Shown here: one piece after another, positions 2,526 to 38,812 of the stretch
Layout: each line of letters starts with the position of its first letter
How positions within the stretch are numbered: position 1 is the first letter of the stretch
DNA from: Escherichia phage vB_Eco_Titus
DNA: 40,010 nucleotides
Sequence record: OX090892
Direction: 5' to 3' (one strand)
The notes under the pieces: generated by a model
Databases searched by the model: none
What the model was told of the DNA's origin: nothing
Seen by the model: the letters and a program-made list of their open reading frames with translations, nothing else
Position numbers and translations under genes: made by a program

Positions 2526-4422
<1,897 letters not shown>

Positions 4423-4605
4423 ATGAAAGGTGCTATTATCTTCTACATTGTGATGACTCTGCTGGCTTGTGCTGGTTGGATTACCAACATCGTCAATGTA
4501 ATTACAGGCTTCCACCATGAGGTCGGTATCCTGTTTGTTGCTCAGTGCTTTGGCATCGCCGCCTTCCCTCTTGGGTCTGTGCTGGGCATCGCCTCTTGGT
4601 TCTAA
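4423..4605 (+). CDS. Small hydrophobic membrane protein (60 aa, two predicted TM segments)
   Basis: ATG immediately after primase stop, GGAG upstream; MKGAIIFYIVMTLLACAGWITNIVNVITGFHHEVGILFVAQCFGIAAFPLGSVLGIASWF is almost entirely hydrophobic. Confidence 0.5.
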   Translation: MKGAIIFYIVMTLLACAGWITNIVNVITGFHHEVGILFVAQCFGIAAFPLGSVLGIASWF

Positions 4606-5011: not shown

Positions 5012-5737
5012 ATGTCAACTAAGCCACAAAAGAAAATGTACACAACTCCGGTCGGTGTCGTAGGTGCATATCCTTACCTGCAACGTCCTGACAAGGGTAA
5101 CGAGAAGTTCCCTAAGCCTCGCGGTGAGTGGAGCTGTAAGCTGCTGATTCCTAGTGCTCAAGCACAAAAGGTAGTAGACCTGATTGTGAAGGCTTCCGAG
5201 GCCAACTATCAGAACTACCTTGAGAACATTCATCCTAAGCGTCTGGCCGAAGCGAAAGCAAAAGGTAAGCGTCCGCCTAAGCAACTGGATGAAGCACAGT
5301 ACCCATTCTATGAAGACGACCAAGGTAACGTAGTATTCACCTTCAAGAGTCACGCTTCATACCAAGACAAGTCTGGTGAGACTAAAGAGATTACTCTGCG
5401 TGTCTACGACTGCCAAGGTAAGCGCATTCAGGTAGTACCTAACATCTGCAATGGTTCTGAGGGTCGTGTTGAGTTCTCACTCGTGCCTTACGTCTCCGAA
5501 GTCGCTAACGTTGGTATCAAGCTGCAACTTGAGAAGTTCCAACTGTTGAAGCTGAAGGAATGGACAGGCAATGACACCTTCGGTGGTGGCGCTGTGGAAG
5601 GCTATGAAGATGGCTTCAAGGCTGATGAATTTAGTGGTGAAGGCACAGGCTTTGAAGACCACGACTACAGCGATGATGAACCTGCTGGTGGTACTGCTCA
5701 GGACTACCACGAAGACACTACCTACGGTGACTTCTAA
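5012..5737 (+). CDS. 2.5: Single-stranded DNA-binding protein (T7 gene 2.5 homologue)
   Basis: 241 aa; core similar to remembered T7 gp2.5 (…SLVPY…KLQLE…) and acidic C-terminal tail ending in ..YGDF as in T7 (..DGDF). Confidence 0.9.
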   Translation: MSTKPQKKMYTTPVGVVGAYPYLQRPDKGNEKFPKPRGEWSCKLLIPSAQAQKVVDLIVKASEANYQNYLENIHPKRLAEAKAKGKRPPKQLDEAQYPFYEDDQGNVVFTFKSHASYQDKSGETKEITLRVYDCQGKRIQVVPNICNGSEGRVEFSLVPYVSEVANVGIKLQLEKFQLLKLKEWTGNDTFGGGAVEGYEDGFKADEFSGEGTGFEDHDYSDDEPAGGTAQDYHEDTTYGDF

Positions 5738-20957: not shown

Positions 20958-21527
20958 ATGTGTGACCCCGCGTCAATCACAATGGCTACAATCGGGGTGG
21001 GAAGCTCTCTGATTGATGCCAAGAATCAGAACAAAGCGTATGCTGCTGGTGAGTTAGCAAGACGTAAACAACTCATGCAGATGGTACGTCAGGCCAACAC
21101 TCAGGATGCGAACCTTCAGTTACAAGACAAGTCTAACTTCGAGGCTGCTATCCAAGAGCTTGAGAAGGCAACGATGGACTCTGTGAAAGCACAGGGTACT
21201 GTCCAGACTGCTATGGCTGAAAGTAACCTTGAGGGTCGCTCTATGGAACGTACAAAACGTGATGTAGAGAATGTCTACCTGCGTACCAAGGGCATGATTA
21301 ACGAGAACTATGAGCGTGATTATGCAAACATCTATGCTCAACGTGTCTCTAACCGTGATAACCTGATTGCTGCCATCGAGGGTATGCCTCCACTTCAGCG
21401 TCCTGACCCACTGTCCCAAGGACTCAATGTGGTCACTGCTGGTGTACAAGGTGCTATTGTTGGTAGTAACATCTGGGGAACTTACAAGAAGACTCCTCAG
21501 TTCGGAAATACAGGAGTAACTAAATGA
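20958..21527 (+). CDS. 14: Internal virion protein A (T7 gene 14 homologue)
   Basis: 189 aa; TAAGGAGG RBS; ...RRKQLMQMVRQAN.QDA.L.LQ, LEGRSMER.KR, ENY.RDY..I.AQ resemble T7 gp14. Confidence 0.8.
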   Translation: MCDPASITMATIGVGSSLIDAKNQNKAYAAGELARRKQLMQMVRQANTQDANLQLQDKSNFEAAIQELEKATMDSVKAQGTVQTAMAESNLEGRSMERTKRDVENVYLRTKGMINENYERDYANIYAQRVSNRDNLIAAIEGMPPLQRPDPLSQGLNVVTAGVQGAIVGSNIWGTYKKTPQFGNTGVTK

Positions 21528-23602
21528 GTAAACTTCAACAGGCTTTAGCCTCAGTTAAAGCTCCCACTGTTTCCATCAAAGGTGTACAAGGTGCAACGTT
21601 CACTGCCCAAAATGTGCAAGCACAGCAAACCAATCAGACCAACTACTCAGGTCAGTTGTTAGGCATTGCACAGCTAGGGTCACAACTCTATGCAGACTAT
21701 GTAGACCGTAGAGAGAAACAAGGGAAAGAAAGAGCTGCGGAAATCCTGATGAAGAAGATGCAGCCTGAACAGATTCGTGAACTACGACAGTCAGGCGCTC
21801 TGCTCTATCAAGATGACCCGTACGCCATGCGTGCTCTTGAACGTGAATTAGGTCGTCAGGAGGCATACAACGTTGACGCTATGGTTCGTGAACGTATTGC
21901 CAATGGCGACTACCCAACTCGTGCAGCAATGGAACAAGACCGTAGTGATATGATGGAGTCTGCCCGTGATGGTATGGCTCAGACTTACGGTATTGAACCA
22001 ACGTCAGAGTATTTCCGTGAGGGTATGCAAGCTGATATTGTTGAGCGCAATATGGCTATCTATGATGCTCAAGCACGTAAGCAAGACCAACGTCACCGCA
22101 ACGAAGCCCGTGTAGTCATTGAGTCTAACTTAGGTTCACTGGTCAATTCGGGCAATGGTGGTCACGTTCTGTCTTACCTTCAGGACATGAAGAACAAAGG
22201 TGTTATCCGCAATGATGCTGAGTTTGAAACTTATGCTATCAAAGCGGTGAAAGACCTGTCTCAACGTCCTAACAGCATTGACCAAGTTCGTGCCATTATG
22301 GACTCGGACATTCCGCTGTACGGAGGTAAGACAACCTTACGTGCCCGTCTTGGTGAAGAAATGTTCCGTAACTTCGAGAACTCCGCTGCTGAGTCTACAT
22401 TGCGTAACAATCAAGAGACGCAACGGTGGTTCACCCAGACGTTAAACTATGTGGCTAACCCAGACCTGACACAAGATGGTGCTGAGTTACAAGCATACGA
22501 TAACCTTGCGAAGTTAGAACAATTTGCTAACCAGACACAAGGTACTGAACAAGCGACTGCTGTACGACAACAAATTGAGCAGGCTAAGATTCAGCTTGAG
22601 AATAAACTCCGAGCTAAGAACCAAGCCAAGCAGAAAGAGTTAGCTAAACAGCAACAGCAATACGTTCGGTTAGCTGCGATTGATGAACGTGTGGAAGGTC
22701 GTCTAAGTGGTGACAATCAGTTATCCCTGAAGTTGGATAGCTTTGAGTCAAATGAAACCACTGGTGAATACACTAAGAATGACCTCAACGCTTACTATCG
22801 CATGAAGATGGACGAGATTAAGAACGACCCTCAAATGTCTCAGGAACAGAAGGCACTCAAGGTGTTGAACATCGGGGCACTACTGAAGGATGAAGACAAA
22901 GCGGGATTTAGCGCCCACTTTGGGGAGATGATTAACTCGGCCACTCAGGAACTCAACAAGTACGGTGTCGCCTTAGATGCTGGCGCTGAGTTACCTCCGA
23001 CTCCTACCTTGGATTCCATGATGGAGTTGTATAAAGCTGATAAGCAGAAGTTTGTCAGTGTGTTCGGTTCAGAGTCGTCTTTGATTACTGACCTAGCGGC
23101 AGGTGCTACACTTGGTGTTCACCCTGCACGTATCGCACAAGGTCGTATCGTCTTGGATAAGATGCCTAAGGATGCTCGAATGGCTATGTCATTAGAGTTC
23201 CAGAACATGATGTCTAAGACTGATGACATCTATAACTCGCTGCCTGATACTCAGAAGGAAAGCCTACAAGCTGCCTATGTGGGTATGTCTGGCTTGTCTA
23301 ATGCAGACCGAGTGAAGGTACTGAACGAACACCTGAAAGACCAATATCAATCACTGACTGACCGTGGATGGTTTAACACTGGTCATGTACGTGGAGTAGT
23401 CCCTAAGACTTTCCTTATGGGCGACCCTACCAATCCATCTTCTGTGGATGTCGGTAAGGCTAAACTTCAGAAGTACATTACCACTGAGTTCGGTGATAAC
23501 GGCCTGACAAGCGTCTCTGCTGTTGGTGATACCCTCCTGTTGTGGAATACCCTGCGTAATACGCCTCGGTATCTGACCAAGGAGGAGTTGATGAAGTATT
23601 AA
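21524..23602 (+). CDS. 15: Internal virion protein B (T7 gene 15 homologue)
   Basis: 692 aa; position and size comparable to T7 gp15 (747 aa); start overlaps gp14 stop. Confidence 0.75.
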   Translation: MSKLQQALASVKAPTVSIKGVQGATFTAQNVQAQQTNQTNYSGQLLGIAQLGSQLYADYVDRREKQGKERAAEILMKKMQPEQIRELRQSGALLYQDDPYAMRALERELGRQEAYNVDAMVRERIANGDYPTRAAMEQDRSDMMESARDGMAQTYGIEPTSEYFREGMQADIVERNMAIYDAQARKQDQRHRNEARVVIESNLGSLVNSGNGGHVLSYLQDMKNKGVIRNDAEFETYAIKAVKDLSQRPNSIDQVRAIMDSDIPLYGGKTTLRARLGEEMFRNFENSAAESTLRNNQETQRWFTQTLNYVANPDLTQDGAELQAYDNLAKLEQFANQTQGTEQATAVRQQIEQAKIQLENKLRAKNQAKQKELAKQQQQYVRLAAIDERVEGRLSGDNQLSLKLDSFESNETTGEYTKNDLNAYYRMKMDEIKNDPQMSQEQKALKVLNIGALLKDEDKAGFSAHFGEMINSATQELNKYGVALDAGAELPPTPTLDSMMELYKADKQKFVSVFGSESSLITDLAAGATLGVHPARIAQGRIVLDKMPKDARMAMSLEFQNMMSKTDDIYNSLPDTQKESLQAAYVGMSGLSNADRVKVLNEHLKDQYQSLTDRGWFNTGHVRGVVPKTFLMGDPTNPSSVDVGKAKLQKYITTEFGDNGLTSVSAVGDTLLLWNTLRNTPRYLTKEELMKY

Positions 23603-26600: not shown

Positions 26601-27950
26601 TTGGTGACTGCAATTCGTGGTCTGCAAGATTGGTCGTTCCTGTCTAACTCTGCGCAGATGTGGGTGAACAACCTAACTGAAGTATCAGGGTGGGCAACTA
26701 ACCGGATGATGTTTGTGGCTCGTAATGGTGTCAAAGGTCTGAACCAACTGTTGAACCCAGAAACGAAGTTCTCTAAGGCTGACCTGAAGGACTTTGCTGA
26801 TGGTCTGTTCGGCTATGACCTGAACACTTCGTTGTTACCTTCCTACCGGAACATCAAAGACCAACTGATTAAGACAGGTGCTAGCGAACGTGCTGCTTCA
26901 ATCGCTGCTGGTATTCGTACAAGTGGTGCATTGGCTGCAAGTCATAAGTACAACATCTACACTAAGCTGTTGAACAAGACTACTGAAGGTCTGGTCAATA
27001 TGGCACGTAGTGGTGTACTGAGTGACATCACACACGAAGCATTCGGTGGTGTGCGTATCAATAAGGCTATCTTGAGGAATGCCTCAATCACTGAGAAACA
27101 GTATGCAGGTGTCTTGGATATGTTACGTCAGCACATCAAAGTGCAAGACGGTAAGTATGTCCCTGATGTGCAGGCCATTAAGCGTGACGTTAGGTCTAAT
27201 GACCTGTGGCGCTTAGCGGACTACATTGCGTCTGACTCTGTGATGCGAACAAACAAGGTGGGCTTCAACTATGTGGCTAAACCTAATGCCTTTATGAACC
27301 TTGCGTTGCAGTTCAAGTCCTTCATGTTGAAGGGTCTGAATGCTCGCACTGTTCGTATGTGGCATGAGTCATTCCAAGGTAAGTCTATTGACAACGCTAT
27401 GCGAGTTATCGTTGGTGCTGGTATCACTGGTGCTATCTGGGCTGCACAGGCTCACTACCGTTCTATTGGTATTCCACCTGAGCAACGCCAAGAGTACCTT
27501 GAGCGTATGTTAGACCCTAGCATGGTAGCTTATCAGGCATTCTCACGTAGTGCTGAGATGGGTACTGTACTTGGTGGTGTAAACCTCGCGTTGACTCCAT
27601 TCACAGACAGTGACCTGTTCCGTTTAGGTCGTTCTACCGTAGACCCTGTACGGGCTATGAAAGGACGCTCACCTTTACGTGCAGACGTTCTGAATCAACA
27701 AGCTGTCGGTGAACAACTTGGTGACGCTGTGTACAACACAATGCCAGCCTTGAAGTTCATTGGTACTGCTGGTGTCCTTCCGGCTAACGCTGTGCAATGG
27801 GCACTTGCCGACCACGGCTATCAGTCTGACATGCAGGCTCGTACCTTCTTTGAGAACTTAGCGTCTGCTGCTCCTAATGCTCCTGAGATTCAGTGGTTAA
27901 TCGGGATGATGGCACAAGATGCAGGTGCTTCAGGTAAGGGTATGTGGTAA
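23625..27950 (+). CDS. 16: Internal virion protein C with N-terminal lytic transglycosylase domain (T7 gene 16 homologue)
   Basis: 1441 aa; N-terminal SLT-like motif (..GLFQFTKTTWDAM..), position before tail fibre. Confidence 0.85.
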   Translation: MSYSTDTSSTSMYQRLKALSGDTHGLITTAGNELGLPEGQALKVGMIESGLKADASSGVAKGLFQFTKTTWDAMKQKYGAEYGIDPTASRTDPVANTILGVAYLKENATNYQSTFGKDPELVDLYMGHFLGQSGRNQFLKAMEQNPNAPAYAVVGKRSVANNKDVFFKKDGTARTLNEVYQMYSNKLSATELEQDMKTDRLKMDIQDELLWKTLGRSQDGSANATLSTGTAPSTPNFDVSLSDSKPQSIADALSSYGLQKPEDTVEKDERSFFDGAWEAAKAEIRLSPIGRDLREKYIQSGAPVEWDSAAAALRESFSGLSQSEMFTGNINPLEPMDITPEMWNTILSNGVDKKWMEYIKMSANPQDLVNRVQMAQEMQRADQARQAAATGGQLVGGIAGAFGDPLTFATGGTSAGGSLMTRLFVAGTEAAAGNAANEFSLSQETRGGVETNIAAAALGGFAGGVALRGLGEAFTNMSAAGRMRARQESIDAGVPDVTARPDVEVPEGKTWVEKPDEAGAVVDELGNTHSATSFGNPKVMEAVEANKGIELGGLNSISYDLLRSESTETRTIAQDLVRSPTGIKGGGSGVTRMTAEDYLGRLEGQDNLIYTQAMKAREKAYEHSMFDLQGGRNAREAMERQVVEAIESGDFSRLTPEMKEYADLLTTNFTEKHYAASNIAALSGNADAPNVLTSTIDPKRYVPAIYEEGKVIDAKMRFDPEGKYEGLYNEIQANWTAQWKNNHNGVRERMKALFDEDNSKFAEDLRAKLTKDKELDVVPEGKQKSARMEKQEGIQAKISKAEELRQKNAVKLQKARKPETRAKYEGLVQKYDKQLSELKTELEMTKPMDEDKLLEIYAQRYIERKSYGIAKNGEFTHSSSLEDVDLSDSLVGIENNNFTQERNIFDMAYESIAKDGEPFSLNDLRHFDMMNAMSMYNKRMNGDIAIHASTGKTTKDLKDAIVALPEGRDRTNLDQLTRLITGRRRAEDPASALVTAIRGLQDWSFLSNSAQMWVNNLTEVSGWATNRMMFVARNGVKGLNQLLNPETKFSKADLKDFADGLFGYDLNTSLLPSYRNIKDQLIKTGASERAASIAAGIRTSGALAASHKYNIYTKLLNKTTEGLVNMARSGVLSDITHEAFGGVRINKAILRNASITEKQYAGVLDMLRQHIKVQDGKYVPDVQAIKRDVRSNDLWRLADYIASDSVMRTNKVGFNYVAKPNAFMNLALQFKSFMLKGLNARTVRMWHESFQGKSIDNAMRVIVGAGITGAIWAAQAHYRSIGIPPEQRQEYLERMLDPSMVAYQAFSRSAEMGTVLGGVNLALTPFTDSDLFRLGRSTVDPVRAMKGRSPLRADVLNQQAVGEQLGDAVYNTMPALKFIGTAGVLPANAVQWALADHGYQSDMQARTFFENLASAAPNAPEIQWLIGMMAQDAGASGKGMW

Positions 27951-27971
27951 TTAACACCCACTATTGGAGAG
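27948..27971 (+). promoter_or_regulatory. Phage RNAP promoter (TAATTAACACCCACTATTGGAGAG), +1 G at 27966, with leader hairpin
   Basis: Overlaps gp16 stop; leader GAGGGAG..CTCCCT can pair; phi17 equivalent. Confidence 0.6.
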
Positions 27972-29904: not shown

Positions 29905-30249
29905 ATGTACTTAAACTATTCACAAGCTATGCAGGCTTTGTTGGATGGTTATGATGTCATTCGGGAGAGCACAGGACGTGTTCTCTCTGTTGATAAGACC
30001 AACAACAATATGTTTGCCTACTGGCCTGAACTTGGTGAAGGTCTGCGGGATACACCAATGAGTCAAGAAGACTTAGAGGCAACCGACTGGAAAATCTATG
30101 ACCATAATGGTAACGATGCTCCTGAGGACTCCTCTCAGTTCGACATCAAGGTTCCTGTGGACACCAAGCAACAACAAATTGATGAACTAACTGATAAGTT
30201 AGCAAATCTTGAACAGAAACTCATGGAGGTGCTAAATGCCAAGTCCTAA
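29905..30249 (+). CDS. Hypothetical protein (114 aa), possibly DUF2829-like with C-terminal coiled coil
   Basis: TAAGGAGG RBS; pattern Y.QAMQALLDGYDVIR ... AYWPE ... SQEDLEATDWKIY resembles, from memory, the DUF2829 fold (family of Thoeris anti-defence Tad2); not verifiable here. Confidence 0.6.
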   Translation: MYLNYSQAMQALLDGYDVIRESTGRVLSVDKTNNNMFAYWPELGEGLRDTPMSQEDLEATDWKIYDHNGNDAPEDSSQFDIKVPVDTKQQQIDELTDKLANLEQKLMEVLNAKS

Positions 30250-31321
30250 AGCTCAAGACACTGTTGAGTTCGGATGGTCTGGTACTGATGGTTATATTCG
30301 TAATGGAGGTAAGTACAACCTCCTTACGTCTAAGCCTAAGATGACCTTTGCGTATGACACAGTGATGTACTCAACTGACCCTGCCGTAGAGGATGTTCGG
30401 ACAGTTGGACTGCAAGTGTTCCCACTTCAGCCTAACGAAATGTCTGAACTGAATGCCTACGCTGTGGCTCACTCAATCAATGACCCGTGGAATCCGGCAG
30501 ACCCTGCTGACCCTGTTGGTAAACCTGAGCATCCTGTCACTAACATGATTTACTCGTTTGACACTGCGTCTGGCCGATTGGTTCCAGTCAATGTGTATGC
30601 CCAAGATGGTGACTTCTGGGTAGGTGACCAAGCGTCAACCAATGAGAAACGACTGGCTGTGTTACGTCAGGTTGGTAGTGGGTTTACTGCTGCCTTGGTT
30701 CACATTACCGATGCTGGTCATGTTCAGGTAACTCGAACAGATAATGCAGGTAATATGGTGTCTCTGGACATTGGAGATACAGATATTGGCATCACCACGA
30801 GTGCTGGCCGTAAGCGGTTTGTTACCGAGGATGAACTGCCTCCTCCGCCTCCACCTCCTGCTGCACCTGTTGTCCAGTCTATTGACTTGGTAGATACCGT
30901 GAAACTTGCAGGTGCAAACTACGTGTCTAACACTGCTGTGCTAACTCAAACGTTGATGCAGGAGAATGGTACTGGCGACTACGTTGTGAAGCATCGCCTT
31001 GTCAGCTACGGCACGTTCAACTTCCCAGCTACATCATCAAACACTAAGTCAACCACATTGTCTTTGTCTGGGATGTTCTCTGGCAATCAATATGTGTTCT
31101 GTGACGAGATGACAATCAGTGGTTGGACTGTATCTGGTGGTTCTAACCCAACACAGCACAGTTATCGTATTGACCAGACCAAGCGACAGACAAACCAAAT
31201 TGTTGTGCAAGCAAATGGTACGACTAACGGTGCTCTGACTGTCGCTGCCACTATTGTGATTGAGTTTAATCTGCCTAACCAAGACTACGGCTTAGGTGTC
31301 CCATTCCCTGAATTTGCGTAA
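30236..31321 (+). CDS. Hypothetical two-domain protein (361 aa) with poly-proline linker
   Basis: GGAGGTG RBS, start overlaps upstream stop; internal PPPPPPPAAP linker; Ser/Thr/Gly-rich beta-type C-terminal domain; no homology recognised. Confidence 0.65.
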   Translation: MPSPKAQDTVEFGWSGTDGYIRNGGKYNLLTSKPKMTFAYDTVMYSTDPAVEDVRTVGLQVFPLQPNEMSELNAYAVAHSINDPWNPADPADPVGKPEHPVTNMIYSFDTASGRLVPVNVYAQDGDFWVGDQASTNEKRLAVLRQVGSGFTAALVHITDAGHVQVTRTDNAGNMVSLDIGDTDIGITTSAGRKRFVTEDELPPPPPPPAAPVVQSIDLVDTVKLAGANYVSNTAVLTQTLMQENGTGDYVVKHRLVSYGTFNFPATSSNTKSTTLSLSGMFSGNQYVFCDEMTISGWTVSGGSNPTQHSYRIDQTKRQTNQIVVQANGTTNGALTVAATIVIEFNLPNQDYGLGVPFPEFA

Positions 31322-31332
31322 GGAGGTAAATC

Positions 31333-31473
31333 GTGAAGGTTAAAAAGCGTATTGTTGCCGCTGTGGTTCTGGCATCCCTGATTGTTCTGGGTGCTATCTT
31401 TGAAACCGACCTGACCAAGATGGCTGACGCTCTGGTGTCCGTCTCTTGCTCTATCGTTGAGTGTACACAATGA
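31333..31473 (+). CDS. Small single-pass membrane protein (46 aa), GTG start
   Basis: TAAGGAGGT 5 nt upstream of GTG; MKVKKRIVAAVVLASLIVLGAIFE... has one TM helix; stop overlaps holin ATG; not in ORF track. Confidence 0.4.
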   Translation: MKVKKRIVAAVVLASLIVLGAIFETDLTKMADALVSVSCSIVECTQ

Positions 31474-31679: not shown

Positions 31680-31914
31680 AGAGTTTGAGCTATTACTTCA
31701 GGAACTAGACTACGAAGCTGCAAAGCTGATGTTACAAGACCTGAAGAACGACGAGAAGCGTAACCCTCAGTTGTTTAACGCTGTGGTTCGCATGTTGGAA
31801 CGCCACAAGCATACAATTGCAAAGGTTGTTCCTGATGAAAGCATTCTGACCAGTCTTGCGTCTGAACTACCAGACCTGACTGAAGATGAACAATATGGAG
31901 GTATCTTACAATGA
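31669..31914 (+). CDS. 18: Terminase small subunit (T7 gene 18 homologue)
   Basis: 81 aa; position between holin and terminase large subunit; size similar to T7 gp18 (89 aa). Confidence 0.7.
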   Translation: MTPKEFELLLQELDYEAAKLMLQDLKNDEKRNPQLFNAVVRMLERHKHTIAKVVPDESILTSLASELPDLTEDEQYGGILQ

Positions 31915-32054
31915 ACCGTATCGTAACTTGGGTTCTGTTGGTCTGTGTGTGGACTGCTGTTCTGCTGAGTCTCAGTGGTTGCACCATTATGATTGACAGT
32001 CCAAACTCACAACCAATGGTTGAATGTGGTGACTTGTTAGGTATCACCCTGTAA
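31911..32054 (+). CDS. Small lipoprotein (47 aa), possible minimal outer-membrane spanin or exclusion lipoprotein
   Basis: ATG overlapping terS stop (ATGA), GGAGGT 8 nt upstream; signal peptide MNRIVTWVLLVCVWTAVLLSLSG with lipobox LSGC; mature part ~24 aa; not in ORF track. Confidence 0.45.
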   Translation: MNRIVTWVLLVCVWTAVLLSLSGCTIMIDSPNSQPMVECGDLLGITL

Positions 32055-32062
32055 GTTATATA

Positions 32063-32097
32063 CTCAAGGTCATTCGCGTAGAGTGGCCTTTATGAAT
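32063..32097 (+). ncRNA. RNase III processing-site hairpin (R18.5-like)
   Basis: TACTCAAGGTCATTCGCGTAGAGTGGCCTTTATGA. Confidence 0.5.
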
Positions 32098-32124
32098 ATA
32101 ACTAGCAACTAAGGAGGTTAAATT

Positions 32125-32370
32125 ATGACCGAAAGTGATAACGCTACGCAAAATCTGAGTAGAAGTCCTTATGGATTATGGTCAGAAATTGAAGGATTGC
32201 GTAGTCTGGCAGACACTTTGATAGGTGGAGAGATGCCTATGGAGGTGTACAACGCTCTGACTCCTGAGCAAAAGAAGATTACCCTTAACGTAACCAAGGC
32301 GTGTTCACAATGTGCTACTGCCTTAGAGAAGTTTCAAGAGGAGGTACTAAATGTCGGCTGCCCAAAGTAA
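32125..32370 (+). CDS. Hypothetical soluble protein (81 aa)
   Basis: AAGGAGGT RBS; no TM segment; occupies the T7 gene 18.5 position but does not resemble an i-spanin. Confidence 0.5.
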
Positions 32371-34123
32371 CAAAGACAAACTCATTCTAGCTCGCCTGAA
32401 GGCTGACTTTGTGGCGTTCCTCTTTGTCCTGTGGAAAGCGTTGAACCTTCCTAAGCCTACTCGGTGTCAAATCGACATGGCTAGAAAGCTCGCTGCTGGC
32501 TCTGAGAGACGTTTTATCCTTCAGGCATTTCGTGGTATTGGTAAGTCCTTTATCACCTGTGCGTTCGTTGTATGGAAGCTCTGGAACAATCCTCAGTTGA
32601 AGTTCATGATTGTGTCTGCTTCAAAGGAACGTGCTGACGCTAACTCCATCTTTATCAAGCGTATCATTGACCTGTTACCGTTCTTGCATGAGCTGAAACC
32701 TAAGCCTAACCAACGTGACTCTGTAATCAGCTTTGATGTTGGTCTAGCGAAACCTGACCACTCTCCTTCAGTTAAGTCTGTTGGTATCACTGGTCAGTTG
32801 ACTGGTAGCCGTGCTGACATCCTGATTGCGGACGACGTTGAGGTTCCTAACAACAGTTCCACACAGGCTGCTCGTGACCGCCTAGGTGAGCTTGTAAAGG
32901 AGTTTGACGCTATCTTGAAGCCTGAGGGTACTATCATCTACCTTGGTACTCCACAATGCGAAATGACGCTGTACAGAGAGCTTGAGAACCGTGGTTACAC
33001 TACTACCATCTGGCCTGCTCGTTATCCTAAAGACCGCAAAGACCTTGAGTCGTACGGCACACGCTTAGCTCCTATGCTTCTGGAAGACCTTGAGGAAAAC
33101 CCTGAGGCCATGTGGTGGACACCTACTGACCCTGTACGCTTCGATGATGAAGACCTGCGGGAACGTGAGTTGTCATATGGTAAGGCTGGCTTTGCGTTAC
33201 AGTTCATGTTGAACCCTAACCTGAGTGATGCCGAGAAGTATCCACTCAAGTGTCGTGACTTCATTGTGGCGGCTGTAGGTGATGACTTTGCGCCTTTGAC
33301 CTACCAATGGCTACCTAACCACGAGAACCTAGCTGGGAACGTCCCTGCGGTGGGTTTGAAGGGAGACACATACCACTACTACCACGTAGCAGATAAGCGC
33401 ACTGCGGCCTTCTCAGGCAAGATTCTGGCTATTGACCCTAGTGGTCGTGGTAAGGATGAAACAGGGTATGCTGTCTTGTACTTCCTCAATGGCTACATCT
33501 ATGTGATGGCTATGGGTGGCTTCCGAGGTGGTTACGATGATGAAACCCTTGAGAAGCTAGCTAAGGTTGCCAAGCGATGGAAAGTCAATGAGGTTCTGGT
33601 GGAAGGTAACTTTGGTGACGGTATGTACCTCAAAGTGTTCTCTCCGGTACTGGCTCGTATTCATCCTTGTACGTTGACTGAGACTAAGAGTAAAGGTCAG
33701 AAGGAACAACGTATTGCTGATACCATCGAACCTGTCTTAGGTGCTCACCGTATGGTTATCACTGAGGATGCAATTCGTCACGACTATCAGACTGCTCGTA
33801 ATATTGATGGTCAGCATGACATTAAGTATTGCTGCATGTATCAACTTACACGTCTGACTCGTGAACGCGGCGCATTGGCTCACGATGACCGTCTGGACGC
33901 ATTGGCAATCGGGGTGGCATATTTCCTTGAGTCAATCGAGAAAGACGCTCAGAAAGGCGCTGAGGAGCTTACAGAGGAATGGTTGGAAGACCAACTCAAT
34001 GCTGAACGCATCAGTGACCAACTGAGTGACTACATTGTGCATCAAGGCGATGTGGAAATCCGAGTAGGTTACCAAAATGAGGACGCATATTGGGTCACTA
34101 ACCTAGTTGGGTTTGACCGGTGA
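32351..34123 (+). CDS. 19: Terminase large subunit (T7 gene 19 homologue)
   Basis: 590 aa; Walker A-like region (FRGIGKSF), [10 protein letters not shown], nuclease domain; size matches T7 gp19 (586 aa). Confidence 0.95.
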
Positions 34124-35525: not shown

Positions 35526-35565
35526 AGCATTTAATTTCAGCCACTATAAGATGGAGACAACAACA

Positions 35566-38250
35566 ATGATTAACTTTGATAACATTCAGCGTAATGACTT
35601 CTCTGATGTGAAGAACGCCATTATGCCATTCAACGTACTGGCTGATGCTTACGGTGAATATCTGGCAGGTGAACAACTGCGCTTAGAGCATGAGTCCTAC
35701 CAGATGGGCGAGGAACGTTTCATCAAGGCGTTCGAGTCTGCCTGTAAGCGCGGTGAACTCGGTGATTCTCTGGTGGCTCGCCCGTTACTGGAAACCTTGG
35801 TTCCTGCACTGAGTGAAGCAACTAAAGCATTCTTAGCTCAAGGTGGTCGTGGTCGTCCGCATGTGTCTAAGCAATACCTGAGCCGTATTGACACCGACCT
35901 TGCTGCCTTTATCACCATCAAAGTTGTGCTGATGTCCTTGGGTTCTCCTGCGACAGGCAAAGTAAACAACCACGGTGCTGTAACTGGTGCTAACATGCAG
36001 TCAGTCTGTATGTCTATCTCCAAGGCTATCGAGGAGGAGTGCCGCTTCGGTCGCATTCGTGAAGAAGAAGCACAGCATTTCAAGAATCGCGTTAAACCAT
36101 CGCTGGATAAGCGCCAAGGTCTGCTGTACAAGCGTGAGTACATGAAGGCTGTTGAAGCTGGCATGATTGCTAAAGGCGAGTTGGATAGTCACTTTGAGGA
36201 GTGGCCGCGCGATGAAGCATACCATGTTGGTGTCAAGATGTTGGAGCTGCTGATTGAATCAACTGGTCTGTGCGAGATTGTACGCAAGAACGCTGGTAAT
36301 CCTAAGTTAGACCGCTACGAAGTGGAACTGACCGAAGAATACGCTGACAAGCTGACCTCTCGTGTGTCTGCCTTGGCTGGTATCTCACCTGTTAAGCAAC
36401 CTTGTGTAGTACCACCTAAGCCTTGGACTGGTATCATCGGCGGTGGCTATTGGGCAAAAGGTCGCAAGCCTTTGCGTCTGATTCGTACCGGAACTAAACG
36501 CGCTCTGATGCGCTACAACGATGTGGATATGCCAGATGTGTACAAAGCTATCAACATCATTCAGAACACCGCTTGGAAGGTCAATGCGGACGTGCTGAAG
36601 GTAGCTAACGAGATTGTCTACTGGAAGCATTGCCCTGTTGAAGACATCCCACAACTGGACAAGCTGGATAAACCTGTACGTCCTGAAGGTATTGATGAAG
36701 ATGAAGCCCTGCTGAAGAAGTGGAAGAAGAACGCTGCGACCATCTACCGCAAGGAGAAAGCCCGTCAGTCTCGCCGCTTGTCTCTTGACTTCATGATGGC
36801 ACAAGCTAACAAGTTCGCTCAGTACGATGCCATTTGGTTCCCGTACACAATGGACTGGCGCGGTCGTGTATATGCTGAGCCAATGTTTAACCCACAAGGT
36901 AACGACCTGACCAAAGGTCTGTTAACTTTCGCTAACGGCTGTGAGCTGGGTTCTGAAGGTGCTTACTGGCTGGCGGTGCATGGCTCCAACTGTGCGGGTG
37001 TCGATAAAGTATCACTGGACGACCGCGTTAAGTGGGTGTACGAGAACGAAGAAAACATCTTGGCATCCGCTGAGAACCCATTAGACTGCACTTGGTGGGC
37101 GGAACAAGACTCCCCATTCTGCTTCTTAGCATTCTGCTTCGAGTGGGCAGGGTACGTTAAGTCTGGCCGTAGTGAAGGCTATGTGTCTCACCTGCCACTG
37201 GCATTCGATGGTACTTGCTCCGGTCTGCAACACTTCTCTGCAATGCTGCGTGATGAAGTTGGTGGTGCTGCTGTTAACCTGCTGCCTGCTGACAAACCAC
37301 AAGACATCTACGGTATTGTTGCCCAGAAAGTAAACGTCCTGTTGGAGCGTGACCTGTTGAACGGCACCGAGGACAGCACCAAGATTGTTGTCGATAAGAA
37401 GACAGGTGAACAGATTGAGAAGTTTGTTCTGGGTACACGTAACGCTGCTAAACAATGGCTGCAACACGGTGTAAACCGTAGCGTAACCAAGCGTTCTGTG
37501 ATGACTCTGGCATACGGTTCCAAGAAGTACGGCTTTGCCGAGCAAATCATGGAGGATACTTTACGTCCTGCCATTGATAAAGGCGAAGGTAATCAGTTCA
37601 CTGCACCTAACCAAGCTGCAATGTATCTGGCTGGTCTTATCTGGGACTGTGTATCAACTACCGTAATCGCTGCGGTACAAGCTATGGAATGGTTGCAGAA
37701 GTCCGCTGCTCTGATTAGTTCAGAAGTGCGAGACAAGAAGACCAAGGAGCTGTTAAAGCCTGCTCTGCCTATTCACTGGACTACTCCTAACGGGTTCCCT
37801 GTTTGGTCAGAGTACATGATTCAGGAGGAGAAGCGCATTGAAGCGACTCTGTTTGGTGAACTGCGTATCCGCAACACTATCAAGCTGCGTGATACCGCCA
37901 AGATTGACGCTCAAGCTCAGGCTTCTGGTATTGCACCTAACTTCATCCATAGCAACGATGCGTCTCACCTGCAAATGACCGCTGTGTACTGCCACGATGT
38001 GTACGGGATTGTTGACTTTGCATTCATCCACGACTCATTCGGTTGTCACGCTGGTAAAGCTCACCTGCTGTTCAAAGGTGTGCGTGAGACAATGGTTAAG
38101 ACTTACAGTGAACACGATGTAATCGCTGAGTTCTATGAGCAATTCGCTGAGCAACTGCACGAGTCCCAACTGGACAAGATGCCAGCTCTTCCTGAGAAGG
38201 GTAACTTAGACCTGAACGAAATCCTGAAGTCACTGTACACTTTCAGTTAA
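35566..38250 (+). CDS. 1: DNA-directed RNA polymerase, single-subunit (T7 gene 1 homologue)
   Basis: 894 aa from ATG 35566 (GGAGA 8 nt upstream; in-frame ATG at 35551 lacks an RBS); very high similarity to T7 RNAP throughout (PFN.LAD.YGE, QPCVVPPKPWTGI.GGGYWA, RKSRR.SL.FM..QANKFA, WAEQDSPFCFLAFCFE, VTKRSVMTLAYGSK, HDSFG, QLHESQLDKMPALP). Confidence 0.97.
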   Translation: MINFDNIQRNDFSDVKNAIMPFNVLADAYGEYLAGEQLRLEHESYQMGEERFIKAFESACKRGELGDSLVARPLLETLVPALSEATKAFLAQGGRGRPHVSKQYLSRIDTDLAAFITIKVVLMSLGSPATGKVNNHGAVTGANMQSVCMSISKAIEEECRFGRIREEEAQHFKNRVKPSLDKRQGLLYKREYMKAVEAGMIAKGELDSHFEEWPRDEAYHVGVKMLELLIESTGLCEIVRKNAGNPKLDRYEVELTEEYADKLTSRVSALAGISPVKQPCVVPPKPWTGIIGGGYWAKGRKPLRLIRTGTKRALMRYNDVDMPDVYKAINIIQNTAWKVNADVLKVANEIVYWKHCPVEDIPQLDKLDKPVRPEGIDEDEALLKKWKKNAATIYRKEKARQSRRLSLDFMMAQANKFAQYDAIWFPYTMDWRGRVYAEPMFNPQGNDLTKGLLTFANGCELGSEGAYWLAVHGSNCAGVDKVSLDDRVKWVYENEENILASAENPLDCTWWAEQDSPFCFLAFCFEWAGYVKSGRSEGYVSHLPLAFDGTCSGLQHFSAMLRDEVGGAAVNLLPADKPQDIYGIVAQKVNVLLERDLLNGTEDSTKIVVDKKTGEQIEKFVLGTRNAAKQWLQHGVNRSVTKRSVMTLAYGSKKYGFAEQIMEDTLRPAIDKGEGNQFTAPNQAAMYLAGLIWDCVSTTVIAAVQAMEWLQKSAALISSEVRDKKTKELLKPALPIHWTTPNGFPVWSEYMIQEEKRIEATLFGELRIRNTIKLRDTAKIDAQAQASGIAPNFIHSNDASHLQMTAVYCHDVYGIVDFAFIHDSFGCHAGKAHLLFKGVRETMVKTYSEHDVIAEFYEQFAEQLHESQLDKMPALPEKGNLDLNEILKSLYTFS

Positions 38251-38269
38251 TAACACCCACTATGGGACA
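38246..38269 (+). promoter_or_regulatory. Phage RNAP promoter, variant (TTAATAACACCCACTATGGGACAG), +1 G at 38264, with leader hairpin
   Basis: One base shorter before the G-run (CACTATGGG); overlaps RNAP stop; leader GGGACAGAC..TTTGTCCC can form a 9-bp stem. Confidence 0.5.
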
Positions 38270-38314: not shown

Positions 38315-38812
38315 ATGGTTGACTTTTCTGCTGTTGCTGCTGTTGGTTGTGGTGTTCTGAGCATTGTGTCTTGCGTCCTGATGTCTAAGCGAAGCATGGA
38401 CAAGGAAGACATGAAGGTACTGCGCGGCCAAGTCCATGAGTTGAACCAAAAGCTGAAGGCTGAAAAAGAGTACAACGAGTACATGAAGAAAGACTACAAG
38501 TCACGCGAGATTGACTGGATGGGCAAGGTCATTGATGAACAACGGGTAGCCAAGGTGCTGCGTGACGAGTTAGGTAAAGCACGTAAGCAACTGAACGAGA
38601 AGTTACAACCTGCTACTGTGCAGTGTGACGGGGTGTCTATCCGCTTGGACTCCAAGACTTCAATGAACTTCTCGGTAGGAAAAGTGATTAAAGAACTGTC
38701 ACTCTCTGTGCTCGGTAACACTGTGACGGTCACTGTAGTTAAACACAATGGAATTGTTAAATCACATACATTCCAGAACGTGAGCTATAGTTACCGACAA
38801 GCGCAGCAATAA
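38315..38812 (+). CDS. Membrane-anchored coiled-coil protein (165 aa), unknown function
   Basis: AGGAGGA RBS; N-terminal TM helix (FSAVAAVGCGVLSIVSCVLM), charged coiled-coil segment, beta-rich C-terminus; first gene after RNAP, upstream of a terminator-like hairpin. Confidence 0.65.
   Translation: MVDFSAVAAVGCGVLSIVSCVLMSKRSMDKEDMKVLRGQVHELNQKLKAEKEYNEYMKKDYKSREIDWMGKVIDEQRVAKVLRDELGKARKQLNEKLQPATVQCDGVSIRLDSKTSMNFSVGKVIKELSLSVLGNTVTVTVVKHNGIVKSHTFQNVSYSYRQAQQ

Follow-up and report, generated by a model that had tools for sequence, protein, structure and literature searches.

A possible split, miniature spanin-like gene pair in place of Rz/Rz1 in the T7-like coliphage vB_Eco_Mak

Phage T7 carries gp18.5, with the embedded gp18.7, between the genes of the small and large terminase subunits (terS and terL). 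We studied a stretch of 40,010 nucleotides from Escherichia phage vB_Eco_Titus (sequence record OX090892), hereafter the window, whose DNA is 100% identical to that of Escherichia phage vB_Eco_Mak (OX001577.1); we call the phage Mak. It is near-identical to vB_Eco_Bam, and both are unclassified Studiervirinae. The JELG-KS1 genome paper places Mak, Bam, and Titus in one tentative genus near Aeromonas and Vibrio phages, and our literature search found no other paper mentioning Mak. Between terS and terL, Mak encodes a prolipoprotein of 47 amino acids (aa), lpp47, and a soluble 81-aa protein, p81, whereas a 46-aa transmembrane (TM) protein, tm46, is encoded upstream of the holin gene. The reading we favour, which we put close to but short of an even chance, is that lpp47 and tm46 form a miniature spanin-like module of two components, belonging to the VP4 family, which replaces the T7-type Rz/Rz1 and whose genes are split in the Mak lineage.

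A preliminary description of this DNA, made from the letters alone, had reported a tiny lipoprotein with an LSGC lipobox and a mature part of about 24 residues between terS and terL, and the gene is indeed there (Table 1). Its product reads MNRIVTWVLLVCVWTAVLLSLSGC followed by TIMIDSPNSQPMVECGDLLGITL, with the cleavage point between the two. The signal has a basic n-region (R3), a hydrophobic core of 16 residues, and the L-S-G-C lipobox. The mature peptide, CTIMIDSPNSQPMVECGDLLGITL, has 24 residues including the lipidatable Cys and is acidic (three acidic and no basic residues). Its +2 residue is Thr and not Asp, the inner-membrane retention signal, from which it is predicted to sort to the outer membrane. 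A GGAGGT Shine-Dalgarno sequence lies 8 nt upstream, and the ATG overlaps the terS stop codon (ATGA): lpp47 is translationally coupled to terS. When we scanned the six frames of the whole window for lipoboxes at every start codon, lpp47 was the sole credible lipoprotein, and no Rz1-like open reading frame (ORF) was found embedded in any frame.

A tblastn search of lpp47 against 50,697 phage records matched only Mak and Bam. A search with p81 gave the same result, and relatives were obtained instead by synteny and by a search of 5.8 billion proteins. Three 47-aa relatives of lpp47 were found in Logan assemblies (96, 83, and 77% identity), with the same gene order on their contigs. Compared with them, the mature part shows 0-1 non-synonymous and 3-4 synonymous differences, one variable position, and a ratio of non-synonymous to synonymous polymorphism (pN/pS) of 0-0.07; the pN/pS of the signal peptide is 0.4-0.6. 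The metagenomic relatives keep the gene: lpp47 is not a chance ORF, and the lack of conservation that the preliminary description had named as its possible undoing is not what we observed. On the IMG/VR contig IMGVR_UViG_3300029179_000009 (L026), the mature lipopeptide also has 24 residues, of which 12 are identical to those of lpp47. A metagenome scan with the lipoprotein alignment gave no match, and the scan of viral contigs returned one contig only.

The relationship of lpp47 to the small lipoproteins of other phages is less direct. We found no match to a spanin family in Pfam, PHROG, or NCBIfam, and the NCBIfam matches to LptM and IglE (E 0.09-0.9) carry no weight, as they concern the signal peptide only. 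BLAST against T7 gp18.5 and gp18.7 gave nothing below E = 1.5. A profile of the full-length non-Mak lipoproteins has lpp47 as its only match among the six frames of the window (E 1e-5). Most of this signal is due to the signal peptide; a profile of the mature parts gives E ~1 or no match, which is not significant. The mature lipopeptides share an N-terminal motif, C-T-[IV]-x-hydrophobic-x-S, and are otherwise lineage-specific (24-50 aa). We regard lpp47 as the likely positional and class equivalent of the Vibrio and Aeromonas mini-lipoproteins, the homology of the mature parts being only putative.

The second component, tm46, is basic near its N-terminus (KVKKR) and has a single TM segment, followed by a periplasmic tail of 21-23 residues that ends in C-x4-C (SCSIVECTQ). 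With four Lys/Arg before the TM segment and one after it (hydropathy 2.4-3.0), it is predicted to be a type II (N-in, C-out) inner-membrane protein. Its stop codon overlaps the holin start (ATGA). The alignment with the Aeromonas and Vibrio homologues is gapless, with 46-59% identity and 19 invariant columns; the invariant residues include D26, L27, C39, V42, E43, C44, and Q46, and the tail shows no non-synonymous change among relatives. An independent tblastn search reaches the Aeromonas phages at E 3e-4. The family profile, which contains the window sequence itself, matches the window at 5.6e-28, and PHROG 4712, annotated "holin", matches tm46 at 1.5e-6. Homologues are confined to this clade: a profile search of the 5.8 billion proteins gave only 7 clusters, and all the cluster contigs examined are T7-like lysis/terminase contexts.

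In all nine non-Mak loci examined, tm46 lies directly upstream of a mini-lipoprotein gene, with both between terS and terL and a junction that ranges from a 4-nt overlap to a 3-nt gap, and tm46 was never found without a lipoprotein within 0.7 kb. The adjacent arrangement is that of Vibrio N4/ICP3/VP4 phages, of Aeromonas phages of the T7-Ah type, and of metagenomic relatives. The closest terL relatives (~80% identity) are the Vibrio cholerae phages N4, VP4, and ICP3 and the Aeromonas T7-like phages, all without Rz/Rz1. The former have the order terS, 47-aa TM protein, 65-aa lipoprotein, terL, and the Aeromonas phages T7-Ah, PT2, and PZL-Ah152 have terS, 46-aa TM protein, 51-54-aa lipoprotein, and a TM ORF of 32-37 aa. 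A scan of all frames of Mak and of four complete genomes of relatives found neither Rz/Rz1 nor another credible lipoprotein, in agreement with the earlier remark that no canonical i-spanin (inner-membrane spanin) is adjacent at the Rz/Rz1 position. The nearest outgroup, Pseudomonas phage phTUNSv (terL 73.5% identical), has a canonical embedded pair of i-spanin and o-spanin (outer-membrane spanin) at the terS-terL locus and no mini-module. Since both phTUNSv and T7 have canonical spanins there, the comparison of gene orders suggests that the mini-module replaced Rz/Rz1 at the equivalent position.

Unlike in the VP4 family, where the two genes are adjacent, the order in Mak is tm46-holin-terS-lpp47. 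The holin and terS genes separate the tm46 stop from the lpp47 start by 437 bp, so that the pair is neither embedded, overlapped, nor adjacent. The diverged contig L026 has the same split order, with a tm46 that is 52% identical and overlaps the holin start. Because both the Mak-like phages and this contig carry it, the split arrangement is, as far as gene orders tell, stable and no recent accident. The two products have a similar hydrophobic-V-E-C motif with a periplasmic Cys, SIVECTQ in tm46 (31447-31470) and PMVECGD in the lipopeptide (32013-32033). The lipopeptide Cys is a Gly in the IMG/VR relative and is absent from the Aeromonas lipoproteins, and a conserved heterotypic disulfide between the two is therefore unlikely.

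Pairs of this kind have been catalogued before. Kongari et al. 2018 (PMC6139136, Tables 3-4 and supplement) list the pair of VP4, VP3, N4, and ICP3 as a separated two-component spanin, the "VP4 family", and their supplementary table has exactly this TM protein and this lipoprotein. The curators flagged the pair as "too small?"; VP4, ICP3, and N4 have no other spanin candidate in their list. Hence, when the preliminary description suggested that spanin function might be split, with the TM protein at 31333 as a candidate, it pointed to what is now the best-supported reading, but the idea is not novel: the pair is a variant of a catalogued one and not a new kind of system. Mak shares with the VP4 family a tm46 of equal length that is 46-48% identical to the 47-aa i-spanin candidate and has the same C-x4-C-x-Q tail, a small predicted outer-membrane lipoprotein between terS and terL, the absence of canonical Rz/Rz1, and membership of one Studiervirinae sub-clade. 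It differs in that the pair is split by the holin and terS genes, with tm46 coupled to the holin, in that its mature lipopeptide has 24 aa instead of 49, in that it has 45-47 periplasmic residues against 70 (ICP3, by the counting of PMC6139136), and in its host, E. coli. The VP4 family is itself a bioinformatic prediction. The separation of the genes in Mak is within the largest one in the catalogue, ~1 kb (PMC6139136).

If the favoured reading is correct, lysis would proceed as follows. As the promoter map shows, all these genes are transcribed late, from the promoter at 27949. The consensus of this promoter, AATTAACACCCACTATTGGAGA, has 15 copies in the window at up to three mismatches, against 0 expected, all on the + strand (876, 1017, 1926, 6684, 9642, 11554, 14395, 15372, 19744, 27949, 34180, 34950, 38869, 38972, and 39744). 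As no copy lies between 27949 and 34180, the tail fibre, tm46, holin, terS, lpp47, p81, and terL genes form one late transcription unit. From its charge distribution, tm46 would insert N-in/C-out in the inner membrane and expose its tail of 21-23 residues with the invariant C-x4-C. The lipobox and the Thr at +2 suggest that signal peptidase II would process lpp47, which would also be lipidated and which the Lol system would deliver, as an acidic lipopeptide of 24 residues, to the outer membrane, in its inner leaflet. Together, the predicted periplasmic parts amount to 45-47 residues (21-23 in tm46 and 24 in lpp47), which would reach at most ~16 nm when stretched out completely. In E. coli the two membranes are roughly 20-25 nm apart, and the pair therefore probably cannot pre-assemble as a bridge through intact peptidoglycan, unlike Rz-Rz1. 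Contact between the two proteins may come about only once the wall has been removed by holin and endolysin and the membranes are pushed against each other by turgor; the pair may then destabilise or fuse the outer membrane.

Several lines of evidence count for the pair. Strong purifying selection acts precisely on the two periplasmic parts, the mature lpp47 and the tm46 tail. Both genes share a late transcription unit with the holin gene, tm46 is strictly adjacent to the lipoprotein in the nine loci, and its homologues are confined to the clade. The pair was also chosen independently as a spanin candidate in PMC6139136.

Other observations weigh against this reading. The 45-47 periplasmic residues are fewer than in the shortest catalogued pair (combined lengths are 62-300 residues in PMC6139136) and leave no room for a coiled coil. 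In two Aeromonas phages, phiA014S and JELG-KS1, the lipoprotein is present and tm46 is missing from the entire genome. The tm46 tail is nearly constant while the lipoproteins vary radically in length and sequence (24-50 aa), unlike what is expected of co-evolving C-terminal partners, and the homology of the mature lipopeptides between sub-clades has no statistical support. In PHROGs and RefSeq, tm46 goes under the name "holin", and its translational coupling in Mak is with the holin and not with the lipoprotein. The contig L026 has a 63-aa ORF (3074-3265, + strand) with a strong Shine-Dalgarno sequence and an N-terminal hydrophobic segment, which overlaps the lipoprotein start in another frame. 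Standing there besides tm46, it resembles the classic "overlapped" layout of i-spanin and o-spanin, although it is a single sequence without family match and may be spurious. Finally, we found no experimental test of any VP4-family member in the literature.

The short ectodomains also raise a more radical idea, which we think doubtful: that the mini-lipoprotein, with or without tm46, represents a distinct class of outer-membrane disruptor, a lipid-anchored peptide of 24 residues that, unable to bridge the periplasm, would not work as a pre-formed span and would act only after the wall is degraded. If so, we would be dealing either with a membrane-fusion pair smaller than any known or with a lipopeptide that breaches the outer membrane on its own, and the VP4-family "spanins" would not be spanins mechanistically.

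Comparison with other lysis systems helps to place lpp47 and tm46. Mak shares with T7 the neighbourhood holin - terS - R18.5 hairpin - x - terL, with a conserved hairpin, and the combination of an inner-membrane protein with a lipoprotein of the outer membrane. However, T7 gp18.5 is a protein of 143 aa whose periplasmic domain is long and helical, and the mature part of the embedded gp18.7 has ~35 aa, whereas Mak has no similarity to either, no embedding, and no coiled coil, and its lipoprotein lies upstream of the hairpin and not downstream. The phages of the K1-5/K1E/SP6 group, which are T7-supergroup podophages, and F108 resemble Mak in architecture: their predicted i-spanins are very small, without coiled coil, and of the "separated" type, but their genes are adjacent, unlike those of Mak. 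Their candidates have 49 aa (i-spanin) and 69 aa (o-spanin) in K1-5/K1E/SP6, and 50 and 45 aa in F108 (PMC6139136); we found no experimental test of them in the literature. The unimolecular spanin (u-spanin) gp11 of T1 begins, like lpp47, with the signal of an outer-membrane lipoprotein, but a u-spanin requires a C-terminal TM segment. We rejected lpp47 as a u-spanin, as it has no hydrophobic segment after residue 24 and ends in GDLLGITL. The "disruptin" gp28 of phiKT is reportedly a cationic peptide that replaces spanins in a T7-like coliphage. Both phiKT and Mak are T7-like coliphages that lack canonical spanins, and in both the candidate for the outer-membrane effector is a very small peptide, but the disruptin is cationic, amphipathic, and non-lipidated, whereas the mature lpp47 is acidic and predicted to be lipid-anchored. 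A disruptin-type role was rejected on the acidity of the mature peptide.

A first rival explanation has the lipoprotein as an outer-membrane lysis effector, acting either alone, as a lipopeptide that would weaken the outer membrane after loss of the wall, or with a lineage-specific partner, and tm46 as a holin-associated protein (second holin or antiholin). We find it unlikely. The lipoprotein is the only universal component, and tm46 has the above-mentioned match to PHROG 4712 and overlaps the holin start in both Mak and L026. The candidate partners are p165 in Mak (a 165-aa protein, see below), TM/coiled-coil proteins of ~170 aa in phiA014S and JELG-KS1, and the 63-aa TM ORF in L026, whose overlap with the lipoprotein start fits this role. 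Indeed, phiA014S and JELG-KS1, which lack tm46, have a protein with a TM segment, a long helix, and a beta domain that is missing from the tm46-positive T7-Ah and ICP3. This explanation nevertheless leaves the adjacency of tm46 and the lipoprotein in nine loci unexplained.

This protein p165, at 38315, had been put forward as a spanin candidate in the preliminary description. Only three free-standing ORFs of Mak have a TM segment at the N-terminus: tm46, p165, and an ORF of 60 aa with several TM segments, so that p165 is the only single-pass one besides tm46. The 60-aa ORF (4423-4605, + strand) has two or three hydrophobic segments (MKGAIIFYIVMTLLACAGW...), lies 3' of a 563-aa ORF (2731-4422), and is a weak lipobox candidate by score; it resembles a small multi-pass membrane protein. 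The layout of p165, predicted with low confidence, is i-spanin-like: a TM segment (5-22), helices over residues 30-96 (~65 residues), and then six strands. Proteins of the same build follow the RNA polymerase gene in phiA014S (174 aa, 21290-21814 of the retrieved stretch) and JELG-KS1 (171 aa, 5128-5643), while T7-Ah and ICP3 have no p165-like gene there; this distribution, complementary to that of tm46, is suggestive but covers four genomes only. We nonetheless disfavour p165 on its position, on the domain of its analogue, and on its charge distribution. It lies ~6 kb away from lpp47, behind a promoter-like variant with four mismatches (38246-38267) that overlaps the RNA polymerase stop codon just upstream of its gene. 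The C-terminal domain of the JELG-KS1 analogue is that of T3 gp1.05 (PF25755, 4.5e-27; 0.11 for the phiA014S protein), an early-gene family named after T3, and T3 also has a normal Rz/Rz1. For p165 itself there was no match to PF25755 (profile comparison E 0.25), no significant similarity to the two analogues, and no homologue in phages or the PDB, and its single-sequence AlphaFold2 model (predicted local distance difference test, pLDDT, 47) was too poor for a fold search. In p165 and both analogues, Lys and Arg are absent ahead of the TM segment and number 3-5 behind it, a hint that the C-terminal part is cytoplasmic, although the positive-inside rule is a weak topology test on which lambda Rz itself scores ambiguously. 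Moreover, Mak has p165 and tm46 together. We take p165 for an early membrane protein, and a role as i-spanin is unlikely.

The preliminary description had also left room for another role of the lipoprotein, such as receptor blocking or exclusion. In this explanation the lipoprotein would be a superinfection-exclusion or receptor-masking protein, of the kind of T5 Llp or Cor, that also keeps progeny from adsorbing to debris, and the clade would be functionally spanin-less. We judge this improbable, if worth weighing. The retention of the lipoprotein without tm46 in phiA014S and JELG-KS1 leaves space for it, the mature peptides are lineage-specific and track the host genus (Vibrio, Aeromonas, Escherichia), lpp47 is ~0.6 kb from the fibre-associated host-range genes, and the ectodomains do not have the length to cross the periplasm. 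Phages without spanins do exist: they make up 13% of the genomes in PMC6139136, with phiKT among them. However, among the Mak-like relatives the mature lipopeptide does not vary, whereas identity in the C-terminal part of the fibre-associated protein falls to ~43%; the lipopeptide thus does not co-vary with the putative receptor-binding module. Besides, lpp47 is embedded in the late holin-terminase cluster where relatives carry Rz/Rz1, it has no similarity to Llp, Cor, or defence families in Pfam, PHROG, and NCBIfam, and a peptide of 23 residues is small for receptor blocking. Last, that the small ORFs are annotation noise in an untranslated spacer around an RNase III site is very improbable: they are short, and lpp47 and p81 match only Mak and Bam among the phage records, but they have strong Shine-Dalgarno sequences and translational coupling, and their frames are conserved across diverged relatives with an excess of synonymous change.

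The remainder of the interval between terS and terL contains a hairpin and p81, both as first described: an RNase III-type hairpin and an 81-aa protein without TM segment. The hairpin (-24.8 kcal/mol, z = -4.75) aligns with the one in the T7 terS-18.5 spacer, which we take to be the R18.5 RNase III processing site, and with those of phiA014S and JELG-KS1. It has an invariant core, ACTCAAGG...CTTyATG, and compensatory changes in 5 of its 18 pairs. Its sole match in Rfam, to the eukaryotic SCARNA16, was below threshold and taken as chance. Relative to this hairpin, it is p81 that occupies the true position of gene 18.5, with lpp47 on the terS side of the hairpin. The 3' end of the p81 gene overlaps the terL start by 20 nt. 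The hydropathy scan of p81 (best 19-mer 0.44) gave no hint of the cryptic TM domain considered in the preliminary description, and we rejected p81 as a spanin because it has neither TM segment nor lipobox. Its AlphaFold2 model is all-helical, with four helices (pLDDT 74), and has no structural match in BFVD at E<=0.001. No Pfam (E<=1), PHROG, or NCBIfam family matched p81, and an exhaustive phmmer search of the representatives of 1.84 billion proteins gave one other cluster at 50% identity. The pN/pS of ~0.55 is that of relaxed constraint. In phiA014S, the gene just 3' of the equivalent hairpin encodes a crAss001_48-related protein (PF21825, 3e-18), to which p81 has no significant similarity (hhalign E 0.028, probability 1.7%). 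Hence, p81 is probably not part of the lysis pair, and the favoured reading takes it for a passenger gene, specific to the lineage and unrelated to the pair, that occupies the 18.5 slot.

Table 1. Features of the lysis and terminase region of Mak and of other elements discussed in the text (window positions).
Feature	Position	Strand	Remarks
Phage RNA polymerase promoter	27949-27970	+	exact match to 22-nt consensus AATTAACACCCACTATTGGAGA
Fibre-associated 361-aa protein	30236-31321	+	
tm46, 46-aa TM protein, VP4-family putative i-spanin homologue	31333-31473	+	GTG start, TAAGGAGGT Shine-Dalgarno
Class II holin of T7 gp17.5 type, 69 aa	31470-31679	+	PF10746 7.3e-11; PHROG 920 6.8e-18
terS, small terminase subunit of T7 gp18 type, 81 aa	31669-31914	+	PF11123 5e-11; PHROG 1351 2.9e-24
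lpp47, 47-aa prolipoprotein	31911-32054	+	lipobox LSGC, signal peptide 1-23
Bulged hairpin, homologous to T7 terS-18.5 hairpin	32053-32107	+	fold energy and alignment
p81, 81-aa soluble helical orphan	32125-32370	+	strong Shine-Dalgarno
terL, large terminase subunit	32351-34123	+	~80% identical to terL of Vibrio N4/ICP3 and Aeromonas T7-like phages; served to find relatives
p165, 165-aa protein	38315-38812	+	directly 3' of RNA polymerase gene

The window is circularly permuted, with the RNA polymerase gene at 35551-38250. The fibre-associated protein is modular: its first ~85 residues are conserved with VN4_42 of Vibrio phage N4 and with Aeromonas homologues, a run of seven prolines lies mid-protein, and its C-terminal part is the variable one mentioned above. 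The whole protein has 285-361 aa in close relatives. Its gene is 3' of the holin in the Vibrio and Aeromonas phages and precedes tm46 and the holin in Mak. Between it and the tail-fibre gene, a 114-aa ORF (29905-30249, + strand) has a weak match, below threshold, to the Tad2-like family (Thoeris anti-defence 2, PF11195, E 0.0022, 18.9 bits for a cut-off of 25), and a PDB sequence search with it gave no match.

Several database annotations of genes of the lpp47 and tm46 types are wrong. In Bam, BAMTRB_044 (3639-3755 of the retrieved stretch) begins at an internal TTG and loses the lipoprotein signal peptide, and tm46 is unannotated. The RefSeq orf51 of ICP3 (2570-2662 of the retrieved stretch) is a wrong-frame ORF where the tm46 homologue sits. 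The lipoprotein is mislabelled "putative i-spanin" in JELG-KS1 and in phiA014S (2332-2496 of the retrieved stretch), and in JELG-KS1 a TM peptide without lipobox is mislabelled "putative o-spanin" (the JELG-KS1 entries are ORF47/48, 2407-2678 of the retrieved stretch).

The current model calls for a spanin complex that passes through the peptidoglycan mesh and physically joins the inner membrane to the outer one, a requirement that 45-47 periplasmic residues challenge. Such pairs had been seen only in Vibrio phages and were doubted by the curators; Mak has the shortest version and the only unlinked one, in a phage of E. coli. Searches for spanins based on adjacency miss split pairs of this kind. 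With E. coli as host, the standard spanin assays, i.e., complementation of a lambda lysogen null for Rz/Rz1 and spherical-cell arrest in Mg2+, are directly applicable. If the pair fails to complement, an entire clade of T7-like phages would be spanin-less and would breach the outer membrane otherwise. If it complements, the minimal needs for outer-membrane disruption would shrink sharply.

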